Source of the DNA: an uncultured Gammaproteobacteria bacterium | Lineage (GTDB): Bacteria > Patescibacteriota > Patescibacteriia > Veblenbacterales > UBA10138 | Assembly: GCA_964348825.1 (NCBI GenBank) | Contig: CAYGDX010000001.1 | Coordinates: 90,909-154,908 of the forward strand | DNA length: 64,000 nucleotides | Direction of reading: 5' to 3' | Part shown: piece by piece, positions 13,274-56,606 of the stretch | Position numbering within the stretch: the first letter of the stretch is position 1 | Layout of the letters: every line of letters begins with the position of its first letter | The notes under the pieces: generated by a model | Databases searched by the model: none | What the model saw: the letters and a program-made list of their open reading frames with translations, nothing else | Told to the model about the DNA's origin: nothing | Position numbers and translations under genes: made by a program

Positions 13274-13816
13274 ATGTTAAAACGAACTAAAACAATTAGT
13301 CAGATCATTTTGACCGCGCTTTATGGTAGCGGTTTGGCAATGGTTGAATTTCATAATTTTATCAATGATTTTAGGCGTTGGGGTTATCATTATGAAAGCA
13401 ATCGCGAATGGCAAAATTATTTAAAATACATAAAGAACAAAAAGAAGTCGTATCGCTTATTGTATAATCTAAAAAGAAGCAAATATATTAAAATCAATAA
13501 GACAGGCGATAAGATTATAGTAAGCTTAACTAATAAGGGTAAAATGGCAGCGCTTAAAAATAGTTTATTACAAACTAAAAAGATGTCAGATAAATATACC
13601 GTAGTGATTTTTGATATTCCCGAAACAGCGCGCTTAGCCAGGGTATTATTTAGAAAACTCTTAAAAGAAGCTAGCTTTAAAAAATTACAACAAAGTGTGT
13701 GGATATCGAATTGTGACGCTCGTGATATCATGATTAAATTTATTAAAGAACAAAAAATAGATAAGTGGGTGAATGTATTTTATGCTACCAATTTGTTCAA
13801 GAAGTCGAATTTATAA
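13274..13816 (+). CDS. Hypothetical protein: N-terminal winged-helix-like region + C-terminal Cas2/VapD-like domain
   Basis: C-terminal KYTVVIFDIPETARLARVLFRKLLKEASFKKLQQSVWIS resembles the Cas2 N-terminal strand-helix-strand (xxVVxYDIxx, RRxKVxKxL, RVQxSVF). N-terminal half is basic and wHTH-like. No cas1 or CRISPR array nearby. Confidence 0.35.
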   Translation: MLKRTKTISQIILTALYGSGLAMVEFHNFINDFRRWGYHYESNREWQNYLKYIKNKKKSYRLLYNLKRSKYIKINKTGDKIIVSLTNKGKMAALKNSLLQTKKMSDKYTVVIFDIPETARLARVLFRKLLKEASFKKLQQSVWISNCDARDIMIKFIKEQKIDKWVNVFYATNLFKKSNL

Positions 13817-21874: not shown

Positions 21875-21912
21875 ATAATCATAATAACATTAGATCACTA
21901 GAACATTAGAAC

Positions 21913-22272
21913 ATGAGTCAAGAATTCAGAGAGCAGTTAAAAAAGAAAATGGACGAATATGTAAAATTAGTTTATCGCGTGACTAAAAATTATCCCCGCG
22001 ACGAGTTATATGGAGTAACTTCACAATTAAGAAGATCAACCCTATCCGTGATATTAAATTATTTAGAGGGTTATGCCAGGCGCCGAATTCCAACTTGCTA
22101 TCATTTTTGGGAAATATCTTATGGTTCGTTACAAGAAAGTAGATATTTATTAGATTTATCATTAAATGAAAATTATTTATTAATTGAAAATCACAAAACA
22201 TTAAGTGTTTTAGCTGATGAAATTAGTGCTATGCTCTGGCAATCCTTGAAGAATTTAGAAAAATACAAATAG
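21913..22272 (+). CDS. Four-helix-bundle protein (23S rRNA intervening-sequence protein family)
   Basis: SQLRRSTLSVILNYLEGYARRR matches the 'four helix bundle protein' family signature. Bracketed on both sides by family D repeats. Confidence 0.7.
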   Translation: MSQEFREQLKKKMDEYVKLVYRVTKNYPRDELYGVTSQLRRSTLSVILNYLEGYARRRIPTCYHFWEISYGSLQESRYLLDLSLNENYLLIENHKTLSVLADEISAMLWQSLKNLEKYK

Positions 22273-22307
22273 TTAATGTTTAAGTGTTCTAATGTTTTAA
22301 TGTTCAA

Positions 22308-24850: not shown

Positions 24851-24894
24851 AGTAAAATCCTAAATCCTAAACCCTAAATTCTAAACAATATCAA

Positions 24895-25263
24895 ATGACA
24901 GAAAATCAAAATTCAAAACAGTATAATTTAGAAGATAGGACACTTTGTTTTGCTAAAGAAATTGGTATTTATGTTAATAAATTGCCGTTTACAGTGCCTA
25001 ATAAGGAATACGGTAAGCAGTTAGTGCGTTCCGCGAGTTCGGTAGGCGCAAATTATCTTGAAGCTAATGAAGCATTAAGCAAAAAAGATTTTTTAATGCG
25101 GATTAAAATTTCTCGTAAAGAAGCTAAAGAAACTCGCTTTTGGCTACAATTAACCGAGCCATTACCAGAAATGAATAGCGCTAGAGATAAATTTATTCAA
25201 GAAATTACTGAATTAATGAAGATTTTTGGAGCAATTATAGAAAAATCTAAACCTAATGTTTAA
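24895..25263 (+). CDS. Four-helix-bundle protein (second copy)
   Basis: VRSASSVGANYLEANEALSKKDFLMRIKISRKEAKETRFWLQL matches the same family as 21913-22272. Confidence 0.7.
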   Translation: MTENQNSKQYNLEDRTLCFAKEIGIYVNKLPFTVPNKEYGKQLVRSASSVGANYLEANEALSKKDFLMRIKISRKEAKETRFWLQLTEPLPEMNSARDKFIQEITELMKIFGAIIEKSKPNV

Positions 25264-25382
25264 TGTTTTATAATTTTGGATTTGTTTAGTATTTAGATAT
25301 TAGAATTTAGGATTTAAATAAAACGCCATTGTGTACTTATTTGCCTAGTGTTATAATTATATCGTCAAATAGAATATTATAA

Positions 25383-30430: not shown

Positions 30431-32671
<2,241 letters not shown>

Positions 32672-32682
32672 GTTAAGATAAG

Positions 32683-32841
32683 TGTGTCATTCCCGTGAAT
32701 CCGCCATCCGTCAACTGGTCGGAGGCGGAGGGAATCCAGAGACAAGTTGTTTCGAACCTAGAAGCTAGAATATAGAATCTAGATAAGTGCAGTCCAAATT
32801 ATAACTTCTAACTTTTATATTCTAAATTCTGGACACTTTGG
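32683..32841. repeat. Composite repeat, second copy flanking ligA
   Basis: gtgtcattcccgtgaatccgccatccgtcaactggtcggaggcggagggaatcc ... ctagaagctagaatatagaatctagataagtgcag ... ggacactttgg; matches 30431-30659. Confidence 0.65.
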
Positions 32842-33165: not shown

Positions 33166-33392
33166 TTAAGTAAGAGTAAGAGCTTAGAGCTGTGCCCCGT
33201 ACTGTTTCCACTGAAGTGGAATCTAGTACGTGGGTAAGAGTGGCTTGCCCCGCGTAGTTTTAACGAAGTGGGGTCATTCCCGCGGAGGCGGGAATCCAGG
33301 AACAAAAAATCCTAAATAAATCTAAAATCTTAAATTCAAAATTTTTAAACATTTAGTTATTTGGATTTGATTTGACATTTAGATTTTGAAAT

Positions 33393-34877
33393 TTGAAATT
33401 AAATACTATGTCTTTAACCCAATACAATTTATCTGAATTAAGTCAGAAGATACAATCTCAAGAACTTACAGCCCGCGAAGTCGTGGCCGATTATTTAAAA
33501 AAATCAACGGCTGATTTTACGTCTAAAAAATCTTTAGGAGTTTATTTAACTTTGGCCTCAGAGCAAGCATTAGCTCGGGCCTCCGAAATTGATAAAAAAA
33601 TTACTGCAGGCGAAAATGCGGGAGAACTCGCCGGCGTGCCAATTGCAGTAAAAGATATAATTGTAACTCGCGGTATAAACACCACTGCTGGTTCTAAAAT
33701 TTTAAAAAATTATGTACCGCCCTATTCGGCTACAGTAGTGGAAAAATTAGAAAGTGTCGGCGCGATTGTAATTGGTAAAACTAATTGCGACGAATTTGCC
33801 ATGGGTGCTTCAGGTGAGAATTCGGGGTTTCATCCCACTCATAATCCGTGGGATGTGCTCCGCGTACCCGGTGGTTCATCAAGTGGTAGTGCCGCGGCGG
33901 TAGCGGCAGGGTTTGCCCCAGCGGCGCTCGGCACTGATACTGGTGGCTCAATTCGTCAGCCCGCAGCTTTTTGCGGTGTAGTTGGTTTTAAACCAACTTA
34001 TGGCCGCGTGTCGCGTTTTGGATTGATGGCCATGACGTCGTCGCTTGATCAAGCTGGGCCCTTTGCGCGTACAGTAGCTGATGCATCATTGTTACTTAAA
34101 ATTATGTCAGGTGTCGATAAGCGCGATGCTACTAGCGTTAACACTTCCGTGCCTGATTATCCAGCTTTATTAAATAAAGATATTAAAAAAATAAAAATCG
34201 GTGTGCCTAAAGAATTTTTTGGCGAAGGTCTTGTGCCTGAGGTAAAAAAAGTGGTTGAAGAGGCGATTGATAAATTAGCCGAACTTGGCGCAGAAATTAT
34301 ACCAGTTAGTTTACCGAGTATGCCTTATGCCCTCGCCGCTTATTATATTTTATGTCCAGCCGAAGTAAGTACAAATTTAGCGCGCTTTGATGGTTTGAAG
34401 TATGGAGAAAGTTTAAGAGATAAAGATTTATTTACTACTTTAGCTAAAACGCGCGGGGAATTATTTGGTCGCGAAGTAAAGCGTCGCATAATGCTGGGTA
34501 CCTTTGTTTTATCGGCTGGTTATTATGATGCTTATTATAAATCAGCCCTCGCCGCACGTGAAGCAATTAAGAGTGATTTTAATCGTGTATTTAAAGAAGT
34601 AGATATACTAGCTACGCCAACTACACCAACTACGGCTTTTGAGCTGGGGAGTAAAAATCAAGATCCGCTCGCTATGTATTTGGCTGATGTTTATACTGTG
34701 CCCGTAAATATCGCAGGGTTACCAGCTATTTCCGTGCCATGTGGATTATCAGCCGGACTCCCAGTTGGTTTACAGTTGATTGGTAATATGTGGCAGGAAG
34801 AGAAGATTTTGCAAATGGCGTATAATTATGAACAAGCAACGGAGTGGAGTAAATTAAGGCCAAAAATAAAATCTTAA
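33393..34877 (+). CDS. gatA: Glutamyl/aspartyl-tRNA amidotransferase subunit A
   Basis: Amidase signature GGSSSGSAAAVAAG...GTDTGGSIRQPAAFCG. Alternative start at 33408 (MSLTQ). Confidence 0.9.
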   Translation: MKLNTMSLTQYNLSELSQKIQSQELTAREVVADYLKKSTADFTSKKSLGVYLTLASEQALARASEIDKKITAGENAGELAGVPIAVKDIIVTRGINTTAGSKILKNYVPPYSATVVEKLESVGAIVIGKTNCDEFAMGASGENSGFHPTHNPWDVLRVPGGSSSGSAAAVAAGFAPAALGTDTGGSIRQPAAFCGVVGFKPTYGRVSRFGLMAMTSSLDQAGPFARTVADASLLLKIMSGVDKRDATSVNTSVPDYPALLNKDIKKIKIGVPKEFFGEGLVPEVKKVVEEAIDKLAELGAEIIPVSLPSMPYALAAYYILCPAEVSTNLARFDGLKYGESLRDKDLFTTLAKTRGELFGREVKRRIMLGTFVLSAGYYDAYYKSALAAREAIKSDFNRVFKEVDILATPTTPTTAFELGSKNQDPLAMYLADVYTVPVNIAGLPAISVPCGLSAGLPVGLQLIGNMWQEEKILQMAYNYEQATEWSKLRPKIKS

Positions 34878-35570: not shown

Positions 35571-35793
35571 ATTTAAAATCCTAAATCCGAATATCTAAAT
35601 CCTAAATAAATCCCAATGATTAAAAGCCAAAATTGAATTTTAAATTATAGATTTTAAATCAATTTTTAATGACTTAATTTTAAAACATTTAAATATTTAT
35701 TAATTTAATCATTGAATAAAAATTTAAAATTAAAAATTTTAGTTATTTTTTAGAAATTAGATATTAGAGATTAGAAATTTTGAAAATTGCTTT

Positions 35794-36534
35794 ATGTTTA
35801 AAACCAAAGACAACAACATAAATATTAGTAAGAATAAATCATGGTTCCATCATTGGTGGTTTTGGCTTATCATTCTCATCATTTTCTGGTTTGGTGTGCC
35901 AATATTATTTAATTGGTTGTGGCCGGGCCAAATTATGGGTACTGGCTTTACGGTGCGTCCGGGGCAAAGTGAAGTTAAAAATCAAGGATTGGTACAAGTG
36001 GAAACTACTGATGATCCTAGCTTAGGTCCAGCCGATGCTCCGGTAGTAATTGTAGAATTTAGTGATTTTGAATGTCCGTATTGTCGCGCGGCTGCGCCGA
36101 TTATTCGCGCCGTGGTTAAAAATAATTATGAAGCAGTGCGTTTAATTTATCGCGATTATCCGGTAGTTGAAATTCATCCGCAATCTATTCCAGCCGCTCA
36201 AGCGGCAAATTGTGCTGCTGAGCAAAAAAAATTCTGGGAGTACCATGATTTATTATTTGTCAATCAAGAAAAATTAGGTGAACCACTTTATAACGAATTA
36301 GCCGTAAAATTAAAATTAGATATGGTTACTTTCGCGTCTTGCCTTAATAATAAAAGTGTTTTAATGGAAATGAAAGATGATTTAGAAGCAGGATTTAAGG
36401 CTGGTGTACGCGGTACGCCCACTTGGTTTGTGAATGGTCGTAAAATTGAAGGGGTGATAAGTAAAAATGATTGGCAAAAAATTATCCAAGCGGCGATAAA
36501 AGAGAAGTTTAGTAAGAGTAACAGTGGAGAGTAA
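35794..36534 (+). CDS. DsbA-family thiol:disulfide oxidoreductase, membrane-anchored (paralog 1)
   Basis: N-terminal TM. Thioredoxin active site FECPYC in a DsbA-like fold. Confidence 0.7.
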   Translation: MFKTKDNNINISKNKSWFHHWWFWLIILIIFWFGVPILFNWLWPGQIMGTGFTVRPGQSEVKNQGLVQVETTDDPSLGPADAPVVIVEFSDFECPYCRAAAPIIRAVVKNNYEAVRLIYRDYPVVEIHPQSIPAAQAANCAAEQKKFWEYHDLLFVNQEKLGEPLYNELAVKLKLDMVTFASCLNNKSVLMEMKDDLEAGFKAGVRGTPTWFVNGRKIEGVISKNDWQKIIQAAIKEKFSKSNSGE

Positions 36535-36590
36535 GAGTTTTTTAAAAATCCGAAATTCGAATATCTAAATCCTAAATAAATTCCAAAAGT

Positions 36591-36760
36591 CGTGCGGCCT
36601 CGTCGTAGGGTTTGTACAGAGCGCAAGGCAAACGAGCGTCCGGTTCGGGCGTGCTGTGGTAGTTGTGCATAGCCCGAACCAGCTCGTTTGGCGAGCACTG
36701 TTCAAACCCGAAGACACAGGCCGCGATTCTTGGTTACTTCTATTAAAGAAGTAACAAAAT
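36591..36760 (+). repeat. Structured about-170-nt element (family C), forward orientation; possible small ncRNA or cruciform-forming MITE
   Basis: Long stem caaacgagcgtccggttcgggc...gcccgaaccagctcgtttg plus terminal hairpin ggttacttct-attaa-agaagtaacc. Related copies at 37667-37853 (reverse), 39899-40170 (with about 100-nt hairpin insertion), 52622-52850 (diverged). Confidence 0.5.
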
Positions 36761-36855
36761 AAATCATTAATTAAATTTTAGAAATTTTGTTATATTTATT
36801 TCCCATGTTATACTTAAAATACTTTATTTAACCATTTATTATTTTTTATTACATT

Positions 36856-37632
36856 ATGTCTGAACTTTACAATAAGCCAAGTTTGTTTGCCGGTGCTTCA
36901 CCAAAGTTTACATTTATTATGGGTTTGGTAACAGGTGTAGCGGCAGTGAGTTTAATTGGTTTTGTGCTCATCGCTACTTCGGCTACTCCAGGATTATTAG
37001 CTAAGTTAGGTAACAATCTAGCAGTTAATCCATCACCACAAGCGGGTGCGCCTAATGCGCCGGGCGGAGAGGTGCCTCCACCACCACTTGGAAAACAAGA
37101 TGTTAAAGTAAAATCATCAGATTATATTCGGGGGAGCAAAAATGCGCCAGTTACTGTAATTACATATTCCGATTTAGAATGTCCATTTTGTAAAAGATTT
37201 CATCCTGGTGTGCTTAAGTTAATGAATGATTATAAAGGTAAGGTACGTTTAATTTATCGTCATTTTCCATTATCATTCCATGCTAATGCCCAAAAAGAGG
37301 CCGAAGCTTCGGAATGTGTAGGCAAGTTGGGTGGGGCTGACAAGTATTGGAGTTTTATTGATAAAATTTTTGAGCGCACTACCACCAATGGTACTGGTTT
37401 TGCTTTAGATAAACTTGGGCCACTAGCAAAAGAAGTAGGTGTGGATCAAGCCAAATTTCAGAAATGTTTAGATGATTCCGAATTTGCCGCCAAAGTGCAA
37501 ACCGATTTGCAAGAAGGTGCGGGTTTTGGCGTGGGTGGTACACCAACTACATTTGTAAATGGTACACCGGTGGAAGGCGCCGTGCCGTTTGAGCAATTGA
37601 AAGCCGTGGTGGATCAAGAGTTAGCAAAATAA
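36856..37632 (+). CDS. DsbA-family thiol:disulfide oxidoreductase (paralog 2)
   Basis: N-terminal TM, active site LECPFC. Confidence 0.7.
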   Translation: MSELYNKPSLFAGASPKFTFIMGLVTGVAAVSLIGFVLIATSATPGLLAKLGNNLAVNPSPQAGAPNAPGGEVPPPPLGKQDVKVKSSDYIRGSKNAPVTVITYSDLECPFCKRFHPGVLKLMNDYKGKVRLIYRHFPLSFHANAQKEAEASECVGKLGGADKYWSFIDKIFERTTTNGTGFALDKLGPLAKEVGVDQAKFQKCLDDSEFAAKVQTDLQEGAGFGVGGTPTTFVNGTPVEGAVPFEQLKAVVDQELAK

Positions 37633-37666
37633 TATAGAATTAAAATTAGTTTATTTGTTTTTTTGT

Positions 37667-37853
37667 CACTTCTCTAGGAGAAGTAACCAAGAGTCGCAAC
37701 CTTTGTCTCCAAGTCAGGCAGTACTCGTCAAACTCGCTGGTCAGGCCTATGCACATCGACCACAAACACGGCCTGACCGGACGCTCGTTTAACTTCCCTG
37801 CCTACCGGCAGGCAGGCGCTCTGCACTGACTTTACGACGAGGTTGCACAACGG
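37667..37853 (-). repeat. Family C structured element, inverted orientation, with compensatory stem changes
   Basis: Reverse-complement alignment to 36591-36760. Stem ggttcgggc/gcccgaacc is replaced by ggtcaggcc/ggcctgacc (covariation). Extra hairpin cctgcctaccggcaggcagg. Confidence 0.5.
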
Positions 37854-37876
37854 TTAATTTTTCATTTTGATTTTTT

Positions 37877-38476
37877 ATGAATAAGAAAAATTTAATTATT
37901 GCTCTAGTTGTGATAGTAGTAGTTTTGGTTGGTTTGTGGCAATGGAGTCGGCAAGATGCACCTTCATACCCGGAAGTTAATTCGCCGCGGCCATTTTTAG
38001 GGTTAGCAGATTCTAAAGTGGTGGTAGAAGAATTTTCTGATTTCCAATGTCCAGCTTGTAAAGCGGCTCAACCAATAGTTAAGGATTTGATTGAAACTTT
38101 GGGTGGTCGTATAAAATTTAGTTATCGCCATTTCCCTTTACTTACTATTCACACGCAGGCCTTCCGCGCCGCGCTCGCTTCCGAATGTGCTAATGATCAA
38201 GGTAAATTTTGGGAATACCACGATATTTTATTTGAGAAACAGCCAGCATTTTCACCCGAGGATTTAAAGGCCTATGCTGGTCAGCTTGGACTTAAAACGG
38301 ATGATTTTGCGGCTTGTCTTGATTCCCGCGCTAAAAATAAAGTGGTGCGTGAGGAAATGAAAGAAGGTGACAAAAGAAATGTAAACGGCACCCCAACTTT
38401 TTTCTTGAATGGTGAGAAAGTAGAGGATTGGAGTAAACTTAAGGAATTGATTCAGGCGAAGCTAGTCGGCGGTTAG
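37877..38476 (+). CDS. DsbA-family thiol:disulfide oxidoreductase (paralog 3)
   Basis: N-terminal TM, active site FQCPAC. Confidence 0.7.
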   Translation: MNKKNLIIALVVIVVVLVGLWQWSRQDAPSYPEVNSPRPFLGLADSKVVVEEFSDFQCPACKAAQPIVKDLIETLGGRIKFSYRHFPLLTIHTQAFRAALASECANDQGKFWEYHDILFEKQPAFSPEDLKAYAGQLGLKTDDFAACLDSRAKNKVVREEMKEGDKRNVNGTPTFFLNGEKVEDWSKLKELIQAKLVGG

Positions 38477-38680
38477 GTGGTAGCATGTAGCTTGTAGTGG
38501 TTGTCATTGCGAGAAGCGAGTTAAACGAGCGACAAAGCAATCACTTAAAATCACTAATAACTAATTCCTAATATCTAATAATGACTAATGACTAAAATAA
38601 AAAAATTAGACATTCGTCCGCCAGCTGGCGGATTGGGATTTTTTAGAAATTAGATATTAGAGATTAGTCATTCTAAAATA

Positions 38681-39496
38681 ATGTTTACCTTACTCCATAA
38701 CACCATTCCTAGTGCCATCGCTGTAACCATCGGTCCCGTGCCAATTCGTTGGTACGGGATTATGTTAACCATCGCGGTTTTCGCGGGTTATTTTTTAGCG
38801 CGACATTATTTTGGTAAAGCGGGACACAACAAAGCCAAATTTGATAATTTATTTTTGCCGCTAGTGTTAATTGGTTTGCTGGGCGCGCGCCTCACTAATG
38901 TTTTTTTGTTTGAATGGTGGTACTTTAAAAATCACTTATCAGAAATTTTTAATATTTGGCAAGGCGGGTTAGCTTTCCACGGCGCAATTATTTTTGGTGG
39001 AGTTTATTTGTGGCAGTGGTGTAAAAAGCAAAGCATAAATTTTTTATCACTCCTTGATATTTTAGCGCCAGCACTCACAGTGGGACAGGCGATTGGTCGA
39101 TTTGGGAATTATTTTAATCAAGAGCTTTTTGGGTTGCCCACTAATTTGCCGTGGGGAATTCCGATTGCGGAAGATCTCCGCCCCAGCCAATTTAGCATTC
39201 AAGAATATTTTCACCCTACATTTTTATACGAATCAATTGGATTAATAATTTTAACTATTATTTTATTATTACTCGGGCGGCGCACCAAACCAGCTGGTTC
39301 AATTTTTGCTTATTATTTAATTGGTAGTGGGCTATTGCGCTTCGCTTTAGAGTTTATTCGAGTAGATGAACAGTTAATTGTTTGGGGTATTAGGATTGGA
39401 TTACTTATTGGATTTATAACAATCTTAGTTGGTTTGTTTTTGTTATTATATAGAATATATAAGAGTAAAAATGTAAAAATAAAAATCCCTAATTAA
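38681..39496 (+). CDS. lgt: Prolipoprotein diacylglyceryl transferase
   Basis: Lgt signature IRWYGIMLTIAVFAGYFLA and GRFGNYFNQELFG. Multi-TM. Confidence 0.85.
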   Translation: MFTLLHNTIPSAIAVTIGPVPIRWYGIMLTIAVFAGYFLARHYFGKAGHNKAKFDNLFLPLVLIGLLGARLTNVFLFEWWYFKNHLSEIFNIWQGGLAFHGAIIFGGVYLWQWCKKQSINFLSLLDILAPALTVGQAIGRFGNYFNQELFGLPTNLPWGIPIAEDLRPSQFSIQEYFHPTFLYESIGLIILTIILLLLGRRTKPAGSIFAYYLIGSGLLRFALEFIRVDEQLIVWGIRIGLLIGFITILVGLFLLLYRIYKSKNVKIKIPN

Positions 39497-39520
39497 CTTA
39501 GGGATTTTTAGTTTTTCATT

Positions 39521-39565
39521 TGGCGGGCCCGGCCGGATTCGAACCGGTGATCTTCTCCGTGACCC
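39521..39565 (-). repeat. Duplicate of the 3' half of tRNA-Asp (anticodon-stem 3' strand through CCA)
   Basis: Reverse complement tcacGGAGAAGATCACCGGTTCGAATCCGGCCGGGCCCGCCA is identical to the 3' 42 nt of the intact tRNA at 39619-39696. Preceded by hairpin ccccgtagagacacgcttgtcttctacgggg instead of a tRNA 5' half. Confidence 0.6.
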
Positions 39566-39618
39566 CGTAGAAGACAAGCGTGTCTCTACGGGGCACAGCA
39601 GTGAGGTATTTGATTATT

Positions 39619-39696
39619 TGGCGGGCCCGGCCGGATTCGAACCGGTGATCTTCTCCGTGACAGGGAGACGTGTTAACCGGGCTACACCACGGGCCC
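39619..39696 (-). tRNA. tRNA-Asp (anticodon GUC), CCA encoded
   Basis: Reverse complement folds as GGGCCCG-TG-GTGT-AGCCCGGTTA-ACAC-G-TCTCC-CTGTCAC-GGAGA-AGATC-ACCGG-TTCGAAT-CCGGC-CGGGCCC-G-CCA. Perfect 7-bp acceptor stem, U33, A37. One A.C mismatch closing the T-stem. Confidence 0.7.
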
Positions 39697-39739
39697 AGCA
39701 AATAATCAAATTAATTTTGTTTAGGGCTACTGCGCCCCG

Positions 39740-39790
39740 TAGACCAAAAGGTTCTTCGGGGCACCACGGGCCCAGCAAAGGAAAAACAGA
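39740..39790 (-). repeat. Duplicate of tRNA-Asp 5' end interrupted by a ccccg..cgggg hairpin
   Basis: Reverse complement GGGCCCGTGGTG-[ccccgaagaaccttttggtctacgggg cgca]-GTAGCCC matches the first 12 nt of the tRNA. After the hairpin it resumes with D-loop nt GTAGCCC, then diverges. Confidence 0.5.
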
Positions 39791-39898
39791 CGCTTTATTA
39801 ATATAGCAGAAACAATATTTATTTCAAGGGGTATATTAAAAATCCTAAATCCGAAACCCAAACTTCTAAATAAATCAAAAATCCCAATTCCCAAAAGT

Positions 39899-40170
39899 CG
39901 TGTGGCCTCGTCGTAGGGTTTGTACAGAGCGCAAGGCAAACGAGCGTCCGGTTCGGGCGTGCTGTGGTAGTTGTGCACCCGCCTGCCGAAGCTGTTTCCC
40001 CAAGTTAACGTACGATGATTAGTATACTTTAGTTAACTATTAGAAATACTAAAACTAAGTTGGGCTAGCGGCGGGCAGGTAGCCCGAACCAGCTCGTTTG
40101 GCGAGCACTGTTCAAACCCGTAGACAAAGGCCGCGATTCTTGGTTACTTCTACTAAAGAAGTAACAAAAT
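39899..40170 (+). repeat. Family C structured element with about 100-nt hairpin insertion
   Basis: Same 5' (cgtgtggcctcgtcgtagggtttgtacagagcgcaaggcaaacgagcgtccggttcgggcgtgctgtggtagttgtgca) and 3' (agcccgaaccagctcgtttggcgagcactgttcaaacccg...ggttacttctactaaagaagtaac) arms as 36591-36760. Inserted stem-loop cccgcctgccg...cggcgggcaggt. Confidence 0.5.
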
Positions 40171-40174
40171 CGGT

Positions 40175-40203
40175 TTGACAACTTTCGAAATTTCCTGTAT
40201 AAT
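40175..40203 (+). promoter_or_regulatory. Consensus sigma-70-type promoter (TTGACA-17 nt-TATAAT)
   Basis: ttgaca at 40175-40180, 17-nt spacer, tataat at 40198-40203. Immediately abuts the 3' end of the family C element. Confidence 0.6.
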
Positions 40204-40237
40204 AGATATATAAATAATAAAACAAATACAAAAATTT

Positions 40238-40423
40238 ATGCGGCCGGGATTTCAATCCAATTTTCAAGCTAATTCTAAGAAGCGCGTAGGCGCTGGTTCT
40301 AACTATGTTTGTACATGGCGCAAACCAACCAGTACTAACCTTTGGCCGAGAGTTTGGCAGCAAATTCGTCGCGGCGCACTTTGGATTTTATTTGATGAAA
40401 CTTTTACTTCCACCCACCACTAA
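40238..40423 (+). other. Leader region: 61-codon basic Trp-containing ORF or small ncRNA, ending inside a terminator loop
   Basis: No Shine-Dalgarno. ORF stop codon TAA (40421-40423) lies in the loop of the first terminator hairpin. Region bounded by a perfect promoter and tandem terminators. Confidence 0.3.
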
Positions 40424-40470
40424 GGTGTGGTGTTTTTATTTTAAGCCGTAACACACGGCTTAGTTTTGTT
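40415..40470 (+). terminator. Two tandem rho-independent terminators directly upstream of the 923-aa gene start
   Basis: caccac-taaggt-gtggtg followed by tttttatttt, then aagccgt-aacac-acggctt followed by agttttgtttt. The second ends 3 nt before ATG at 40473. Confidence 0.6.
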
Positions 40471-52621: not shown

Positions 52622-52850
52622 GGGTTTGTCGTTGTGCCGCCCTGTCGTAGGGTTTGTAGACATCATTTAATTTTAGTGACTTAAAAAAGTAACGCCGCAG
52701 TGAGACCCTCAGAACTTGCGTGTTGTGGTCGCTCTGCATAGCAAGTTCGTTTGGTCGAACCGGCGTTACCACTCGGGCGTGCCAGGGATGGGGTTGTTAG
52801 GGGTAAGGGACGGGCTTCGCCTAACTCCGAGTCCCTACCCCTAACGAAAT
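52622..52850. repeat. Diverged family C-related structured element
   Basis: Shares cctgtcgtagggtttgta and gttcgtttggtcgaaccggcg blocks with 36591-36760. Followed by a family A fragment at 52855-52900. Confidence 0.4.
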
Positions 52851-53066
52851 TAATAAGAGATTGCTTCGCTCGTCTGATGACTCACTCGCAATGACATTTA
52901 TGTTTGTATTATACCCCTCGGCTTGGCTCGGGGTTATCCGCTTTTTACAATAAATAAATTCTAGAAAGCGGATAAAAAAACAGAGTTGGAAAATTGAGGA
53001 TTAAATTAATTTTAATCCAGAAAATTCCAACTCTATAGATTATTCGTCGATGACTTATAGTGCCAT

Positions 53067-56394: not shown

Positions 56395-56606
56395 TGCCTA
56401 ATTTCTAAAAAATCCTAAATTTTAATGTCTAATTCCCAAATAAATTTTAAAATCCTAATACCCAAAAACTAAAACTTTTAGGATTTACGATTTGGGATTT
56501 ATTTAGGATTTCGGATTTAGGGCTTAGGATTTTAATAATTCCCTTGACTATATTGCTTAAATTCTGTATTATTTGATAGCTATTAAATTGTCTATTTTTC
56601 ATACCT

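Follow-up and report, generated by a model that had tools for sequence, protein, structure and literature searches.

Interspersed palindromic repeats have been described in several bacterial lineages and in organelles. Enterobacteria carry ERIC/IRU elements, imperfect palindromes of about 127 bp that lie in transcribed intergenic regions in both orientations, some of them with insertions at fixed internal sites; to our knowledge, neither a mobilization mechanism nor a transposase has been reported for them. Hairpin miniature inverted-repeat transposable elements (MITEs) include Correia/NEMIS in Neisseria, RUP and BOX in Streptococcus, and bcr1 in Bacillus cereus, while yeast mitochondrial genomes contain GC clusters, which are GC-rich palindromic mobile elements. 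Here we describe family C, a repeat of about 175 nucleotides (nt) in a 64-kb, AT-rich stretch of DNA from an uncultured member of the Patescibacteria (contig CAYGDX010000001.1, positions 90,909 to 154,908; hereafter the window). The locus of interest (35794-39496) consists of four open reading frames (ORFs) on the forward strand, namely three dsbA-like genes and lgt, with copies of family C in and next to it. We favor the reading, with a rough probability of 0.58, that family C makes up a new repeat family of Patescibacteria, interspersed, palindromic, non-autonomous, and structure dependent, and similar in kind to REPINs, ERIC elements, and hairpin MITEs.

REPINs are doublets built from REP (repetitive extragenic palindromic) units that form hairpins and are mobilized by RAYT transposases (Bertels & Rainey 2011, PMC3116915). 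Family C resembles them in being non-coding, extragenic, and multi-copy, in forming a long hairpin with inverted halves as single-stranded DNA (ssDNA) or mRNA, and in carrying no transposase within the unit. It differs in its greater length (175 nt), in its asymmetry, with an extra 3' hairpin and constant loops, and in its occurrence in several metagenomes, with one contig placed in Patescibacteria, whereas REPINs are species specific. The two inverted halves of its hairpin, about 65 nt each, are not recognizable as short REP palindromes; no REP-like singlets were found in the window or in the loci examined, and no RAYT/Y1 gene was found in the 64-kb window, which is part of a 469-kb contig (ORF list and Pfam scans of 19 unassigned ORFs).

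With ERIC elements, family C shares a whole-length imperfect palindrome, an intergenic position within operons, occurrence in both orientations, presence that varies between close relatives, and longer variants with internal insertions at fixed sites; it occurs in another phylum and has no sequence relationship to them, and its covariation and strand asymmetry were measured directly. Like hairpin MITEs, it is short and non-autonomous, has terminal inverted repeats, folds in transcripts (such folds can alter mRNA processing), and is present or absent at orthologous sites in close relatives. Unlike them, it has no detected target-site duplication or matching insertion sequence, and its conservation reaches the loops rather than the termini alone; no parent insertion sequence with family C ends was found in the window or in the loci examined. 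The likeness to the yeast mitochondrial GC clusters, which are likewise scattered through AT-rich spacers in a small genome and occur nested in one another, is an analogy only, as these are much shorter, organellar, and unrelated in sequence.

By the features testable here, family C is not a classical MITE, an integron, or a member of an Rfam family, and it is probably not a REPIN/RAYT system. Rfam 15, whose models include 6S, SRP, RNase P, and IS605/IscB-associated RNAs, gave no match to the element in the window, in the region of its diverged relative, or in six loci from other metagenomes (within L009-L015), either at the gathering score or at E values up to 5-10 with permissive filters, and we found no description in the literature on interspersed repeats or MITEs in Patescibacteria. 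As a structured family, family C is new and has good support, but its kind is familiar.

Selection on the family C fold

Copies were located, in agreement, by an nhmmer profile, a covariance model, and a repeat finder, which recovered the three structured spacer copies of the original prediction close to where it had placed them. The complete consensus form, w1, lies between dsbA-1 and dsbA-2 on the forward strand (36585-36760; repeat finder, fold, and a covariance-model score of 197.9 bits). The second copy, w2, is inverted (37660-37855, reverse strand; repeat finder, 146.6 bits) and 76% identical to w1, and it fills nearly all of the spacer between dsbA-2 and dsbA-3, from 27 nt past the stop codon to 21 nt ahead of the start codon. 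The third copy, w3 (39893-40170, forward strand; repeat finder, 162.6 bits), has the form of w1 plus an apical insert, without which the two are 97-98% identical. It is flanked by the upstream region of a tRNA-Asp gene on the reverse strand and by a 12/12 sigma-70-like promoter at 40175-40203; its right junction, the sole end that could be fixed, was placed at 40170-40172 by comparison with a sister-genome locus (L006). A diverged relative, w4 (52631-52850, forward strand; nhmmer E = 3e-6; fold z of -4.9), has homologues at L011 and L012. It shares with family C the 5' end (its first 28 nt are as in a sister-genome copy) and the apical hairpin loop, and differs in the middle stems and the 3' hairpin. 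The orientation of these four copies is mixed, and the inverted pair around dsbA-2 is simply two of them. The 15-nt core AAACGAGCGTCCGGT has three matches in the window, versus 0.75 expected by chance.

The unit is GC rich amid an AT-rich genome and consists of an interrupted hairpin of about 140 nt, followed by a hairpin of 9-11 bp and then an A-run. In w1, the long hairpin (approximately 36593-36728) is near perfect, and the small 3' hairpin (36733-36755) has a 9-bp stem, GGTTACTTCT..AGAAGTAAC, followed by AAAA; the fold reaches -88.7 kcal/mol (z = -9.1 against dinucleotide shuffles), and the opposite strand reaches -84.0 kcal/mol. The basal helix is formed by the 5' end, GTGCGGCCTCGTCG, pairing with GACACAGGCCGCGA near the 3' end, so that the two constitute terminal inverted repeats, with the small 3' hairpin outside this pairing.

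A compensatory change in the apical stem of the reverse copy, from GGTTCGGGC/GCCCGAACC in w1 to GGTCAGGCC/GGCCTGACC in w2, had been cited in the original prediction and is present; w2 also has further compensatory changes in the basal helices and two mismatches that are uncompensated. Covariation was scored on a MAFFT alignment of 12 copies, with nested inserts removed and without fitting to any structure, against the RNAalifold consensus plus the small 3' hairpin (52 base pairs). Standard pairs occupy 90.1% of the cells, versus 78.7% after shuffling and 29-42% in controls in which the structure was slid along the alignment. Changes on both sides are seen in 29 of the 52 pairs, compared with 15.9 ± 2.2 after shuffling (0 of 500 shuffles reach 29) and 3-17 in the slid controls, and helices 2, 4, and 5 covary at nearly every position. 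The apical loop is constant, independently, in w1-w4 and in the four copies found in a metagenome-assembled genome (MAG; L001-L004, below). Hence, as had been claimed, the structure is under selection: the fold of family C has been kept by many compensatory changes while some of its loops stay constant.

The strand that carries the fold is also apparent to some degree. The long hairpin has 39 G-U cells versus 10 A-C cells across the 12 copies, about two-thirds of the G-U cells coming from three positions, which makes this polarity signal suggestive rather than decisive. The forward strand folds better in 9 of the 12 copies, and the covariance model gives w1 198 bits on the forward strand versus 33 bits on the reverse strand. 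Since 1-nt indels in the apical loop break every reading frame, family C is non-coding; a coding reading of the loop (CCGSCA followed by a stop) was rejected because these indels shift its frame.

Recent insertions and nested palindromes

Family C extends beyond the window to four other loci of the sister genome and five other metagenome contigs. Scanning for an exact core pattern of 21 bases turned up four copies, each on its own contig, in the MAG H52-bin160_1 (L001-L004), the only 1 of 185,579 species representatives with a match, and the same pattern gave no matches in JGI metagenomes. A second scan, with a pattern for the apical loop only that left the stems out, found five more full or near-full members (L009 and L012-L015) on contigs of 39-61% GC, together with the w4-type element L011 and one chance intragenic match (L010). 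One of these five contigs, L012, was placed in Patescibacteria, a neighboring protein being closest to Kerfeldbacteria/Patescibacteria proteins. Plasmids and phages (blastn) and viral contigs (two scans) gave no family matches. The genes flanking the copies are unrelated housekeeping genes (alaS, ftsH, efp, recA, prfA, rsmA, and topA) with no conserved gene partner, and tblastn searches of the genes flanking L001-L004 against the window and its relatives found no shared neighborhoods. All copies are intergenic, usually just 3' of a stop codon; relative to the upstream gene, 7 are antisense, 4 are sense, and 1 lies between divergent promoters, and in five of the seven antisense copies the 3' hairpin ends no more than 30 nt from the stop codon of the convergent gene.

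The comparison with close relatives bears on mobility. The coding DNA of the window is 84-93% identical to that of L006, the sister-genome locus (assembly GCA_964360795.1), whereas the spacers cannot be aligned and hold different hairpin repeats. Reading of the spacers and the covariance model agree that family C is absent from the three dsbA-locus spacers of L006 and of two outgroup loci, L008 (JGI Ga0172379) and L018 (GCA_964577765.1), and a covariance-model search covering 20.8 kb of L006 and 18.8 kb of L008 found no copy. The MAG H52-bin160_1 appears to be the same population as the genome represented by L006 and L022 (both GCA_964360795.1): L022 and L003 have the same gene coordinates, their RsmA proteins fall into one 90% cluster, and the element is equally placed in both. 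The sister genome therefore has family C at no fewer than four other loci but lacks it at each of the three window sites. We had considered horizontal transfer between distant hosts and dropped it when H52-bin160_1 was recognized as the sister population itself.

As the sister genome and two outgroups have no copy at the window sites, w1-w3 were gained in the window lineage after the split. Presence also differs at the spacer between the major facilitator superfamily (MFS) gene and rsmA, which is 300 nt long with the element in L003/L022 and 27 nt long and empty in L020/L021. Moreover, w1 shares 96% identity with L003 of the sister genome versus 76% with w2 of its own; therefore, several subfamilies coexist and are common to both genomes. 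These patterns establish that the window copies are recent insertions and that family C is mobile.

Smaller GC palindromes in turn have family C copies as their targets or hosts. A 20-nt GC palindrome, CCTGCCTACCGGCAGGCAGG, is nested in w2 at 37797-37816 (no strand assigned), as seen by comparing the site with L001-L003. This 20-mer (CCTGCCTRCCGGYAGGCAGG) occupies three different internal sites among copies; the w2 site recurs in L002 and another site is used in L001 and L002, and removal of the palindrome restores an uninterrupted junction of GAGCG with GAAGT, as found in L003. The apical hairpin insertion of about 100 nt that had been noticed in the third copy proved to be 102 nt long (39978-40079, forward strand; identified by repeat comparison with w1), with termini CCCGCCTGCCG and CGGCGGGCAGG, and sits between GTGCA and TAG of the apical loop. 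A diverged copy of it occupies the equivalent site of L004 in the sister genome, and it was found nowhere outside family copies. The w4-type element of L012 carries a different hairpin, 29 nt long and GC rich, at the same apical site between GCA and TAG. At L012 2150-2440, this element stands head to head with a family C copy, and the w4 type and family C might be two ends of one larger element.

Mobile repeat or structured RNA

We hypothesize that family C spreads by a mechanism that reads a folded single strand, most likely ssDNA processed by an enzyme whose gene lies elsewhere in the genome, in the way that HUH/Y1 transposases act on REPs and on the ends of IS200/IS605. Such spread would explain why selection acts on structure and not on sequence. 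A copy within a transcription unit would give rise to a very stable RNA hairpin in either orientation, which may incidentally mark the end of an RNA or function as a barrier or a site of processing. In the equivalent spacers of the sister genome, AT-rich hairpin repeats stand where family C would stand in the window.

Several observations weigh against this reading. No direct repeat is common to the flanks of the 12 copies, as a target-site duplication would be, and the A-run belongs to the conserved unit. The spacers are rearranged between the window and the sister genome to the point that a clean junction between filled and empty sites cannot be defined, and insertion into the loop of an older palindrome was rejected, since pairing between the flanks does not exceed that obtained after shuffling them. 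The window ORF list and Pfam scans of the 19 least obvious ORFs revealed no transposase, integrase, or HUH domain. Constant loops and internal loops beside covarying stems, together with the G-U excess, are the pattern of a functional RNA. Some of the apparent conservation is built into the searches, given that the constancy of the apical loop in L009-L015 follows from the pattern used to find them and that of AAACGAGCGTCCGGT in L001-L004 is likewise a product of the search pattern. Finally, the sample is 12 sequences (plus 3), several of them close kin, and copy number is known within the 64-kb window only, as three copies and one relative.

The features shared with functional RNAs raise the possibility, which we consider unlikely but still a live rival, that family C is a multi-copy family of trans-acting structured small RNA genes of Patescibacteria, each copy forming its own forward-strand transcription unit. 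The constant apical loop, UGUGGUNGNUGUGCAUAG, and the internal loops would then be binding sites for protein or RNA, with the w4 type as a paralogous RNA that has this module in common. Beyond the covariation beside constant loops, the G-U excess, and the better forward-strand folds, this explanation draws support from the identical apical module that w4, L011, and the L012 w4-type element (L012b) carry on entirely different stems, from the hairpin insertions of three forms at a single loop site between GCA and TAG, which are like RNA expansion segments, and from the antisense copies, of which 5 of 7 bring the 3' hairpin to within 30 nt of the convergent stop codon. However, neither a promoter at a constant distance nor a U-tract terminator was seen; w2 has flanks of merely 27 and 21 nt, and w3 is placed between two divergent promoters. 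An RNA gene family also sits poorly with the absence of copies from the orthologous sites of the sister genome and outgroups and from the 20.8 kb of L006 and 18.8 kb of L008 that were searched, with copies in one genome that are just 76% identical, and with a core pattern restricted to 1 of 185,579 species representatives.

A related and similarly doubtful proposal is that family C and w4 together constitute a new class of Patescibacteria RNA, structured and strand specific, whose core is the shared apical module CGUG-YUGUGGUNGNUGUGCAUAG. Its members would be either trans-acting multi-copy RNAs or elements that spread via an RNA or ssDNA intermediate recognized at that module by an enzyme not yet tied to mobile DNA. 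If so, the fixed site between GCA and TAG would be a true expansion site or insertion hotspot.

We regard as improbable the explanation of family C as a host cis-acting module, such as a terminator, an insulator, an RNase III site, or a 3' stabilizer, that is interchangeable with the AT-rich hairpin repeats of other spacers. The intergenic position of every copy, usually right behind a stop codon, the fact that the two corresponding dsbA spacers of the sister genome harbor other long hairpin repeats, and the stability of the hairpin on both strands (-88.7 and -84.0 kcal/mol) are all consistent with such a role. On the other hand, a U-tract comes after neither of the two hairpins, whichever strand is read. 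On the element strand the small hairpin runs into AAAA, on the other strand UUUU stands ahead of it, and a scan for intrinsic terminators lists no terminator-like site within the elements. Moreover, w2 stands between genes that are 3 nt apart in L018 and 18 nt apart in L008, suggesting cotranscription, and termination there would cut off dsbA-3, while w3 lies outside any predicted transcription unit. A simple barrier would need neither the G-U asymmetry nor conserved loops, and the relatives L008 and L018 do well with elementless spacers of 3-135 nt.

Several known structured elements were also rejected on anatomy. The element ends, GTCGTGC and GTTGTGC, do not fit the GTTRRRY core of integron attC sites (R''/R' cores RYYYAAC and GTTRRRY), copies lie in both orientations whereas cassettes next to intI all share one, and no integrase was found in the window ORF list or among the 19 scanned ORFs; likewise, attC sites, retrons, type I toxin mRNAs, 6S RNA, and signal recognition particle (SRP) RNA were set aside for want of core sites, a reverse transcriptase, an ORF, a central bubble, or a model match.

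Patescibacteria genomes are tiny, and the spacers of the window are full of hairpin repeats that turn over between genomes 84-93% identical in their genes. Family C stands out among them for the unusually strong evidence of a selected, strand-specific fold with no Rfam entry, and it offers a testable case for repeat movement without a visible transposase, for effects of repeats on operon expression, and for whether some "repeats" are RNAs.

The dsbA genes and the surrounding spacers

The genes of the locus are as they had been described, three membrane-anchored DsbA-like thiol-disulfide oxidoreductases followed by a prolipoprotein diacylglyceryl transferase, all on the forward strand. The dsbA-1 (active-site motif CPYC, 35794-36534), dsbA-2 (CPFC, 36856-37632), and dsbA-3 (CPAC, 37877-38476) ORFs have exact products that match the Pfam families DSBA and Thioredoxin_4 and carry N-terminal hydrophobic segments. 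The Pfam LGT match for lgt (38681-39496) was obtained with its positional counterpart in L016, a contig that has the exact dsbA-3. The gene order ligA-gatC-gatA-VTT-dsbA1-dsbA2-dsbA3-lgt is identical in L006, L008, and L018. The dsbA-1 product is 85% identical to its L006 orthologue at the amino acid (aa) level, and the syntenic dsbA-2 orthologues are 97% (L006), 71% (L008), and 58% (L018) identical. The spacers following dsbA-1 and dsbA-2 measure 215 and 143 nt in L006, 135 and 18 nt in L008, and 74 and 3 nt in L018, respectively. Exact-protein look-ups of the three window DsbAs returned short Logan contigs from one run, broken within the elements, and yielded no strain-level pair of filled and empty sites.

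The original prediction had further suggested that w1 and w2, as an inverted pair, had mobilized dsbA-2 as a composite unit of the cassette type, with the paralog expansion as the outcome; this has only the geometry in its favor (w1 forward and w2 reverse, bracketing the gene) and is contradicted by the findings that three relatives without either copy have dsbA-2 in its place between dsbA-1 and dsbA-3, that the paralogs are 31-40% identical to one another with a 1:1 orthologue of each in every relative, that w1 and w2 are just 76% identical and belong to different subfamilies, and that there are no integron core sites and no integrase in the ORF list or the 19 scanned ORFs. A composite transposon carrying dsbA-2 was rejected on the same identical placement of the gene in L006, L008, and L018 without flanking copies. 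Because the trio is syntenic in element-free relatives and has 1:1 orthologues, it must be much older than the insertions, and family C is unrelated to the origin of the dsbA paralogs. More generally, inverted repeats around a gene should not be taken as evidence that the gene was mobilized.

The remaining spacers of the window contain a variety of other repeats and small features. A short GC repeat (CATTGCGAGAAGCGAG..CGACAAAGCAATC and its complement) occurs in the dsbA-3/lgt spacer (38503-38545) and beside w4 (52868-52900). Downstream of lgt, within 39516-39790, an intact tRNA-Asp(GTC) gene on the reverse strand (39619-39696) is flanked by a copy of its own 3' 43 nt (39520-39563) and by a copy of its 5' 12 nt with the leader (39763-39786). 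Next to each of these fragments stands a hairpin, CCCCG..CGGGG, and the gene is closely framed by a 10-nt inverted repeat, TTGATTATTT/AAATAATCAA. The sister genome has a single tRNA-Asp, on the plus strand (L006 12648-12724), and the region in the window looks like a local inversion and duplication. The promoter to the right of w3 (40175-40203) is a perfect 12/12 match and heads a unit (40175-40463) with a 61-aa ORF (40238-40423) and two terminator-like hairpins that is conserved in L006; the ORF has no Pfam match, and the unit may encode a small protein or an RNA.

The ORFs of the window resemble housekeeping genes. In a 180-aa ORF at 13274-13816, Pfam recognizes the Cas2-like central domain of PaaX (E 7e-14) and, weakly, Cas2; no CRISPR array was noticed nearby. 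Two further ORFs, at 21913-22272 (Pfam E 6e-23) and 24895-25263 (3e-13), encode four-helix-bundle proteins of the 23S_rRNA_IVP/bAvd-like type. Each lies between the arms of an AT-rich inverted repeat (21879-22306 and 24853-25316), an arrangement that resembles the stem plus ORF of rRNA intervening sequences, and further 23S_rRNA_IVP-like ORFs are found in L001 and L003/L022.

Arms with an 8-nt period (AAATCCTAAATCC... and its complement) recur in many spacers, for example at 33307-33403, 35572-35785, and 56406-56538. Two 8-nt-period repeats of the sister genome form long AT-rich hairpins when folded, and at an equivalent spacer the window and the sister genome have different 8-nt-period families or inverted versions. 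Finally, a 156-nt composite repeat flanks ligA as direct copies (30504-30659 and 32686-32841) that are 89% identical; it consists of a GC hairpin, GTCATTCCCGTGAATCCGCC..GGCGGAGGGAATCC, and an AT-rich palindrome, and related pieces occur elsewhere in L006.

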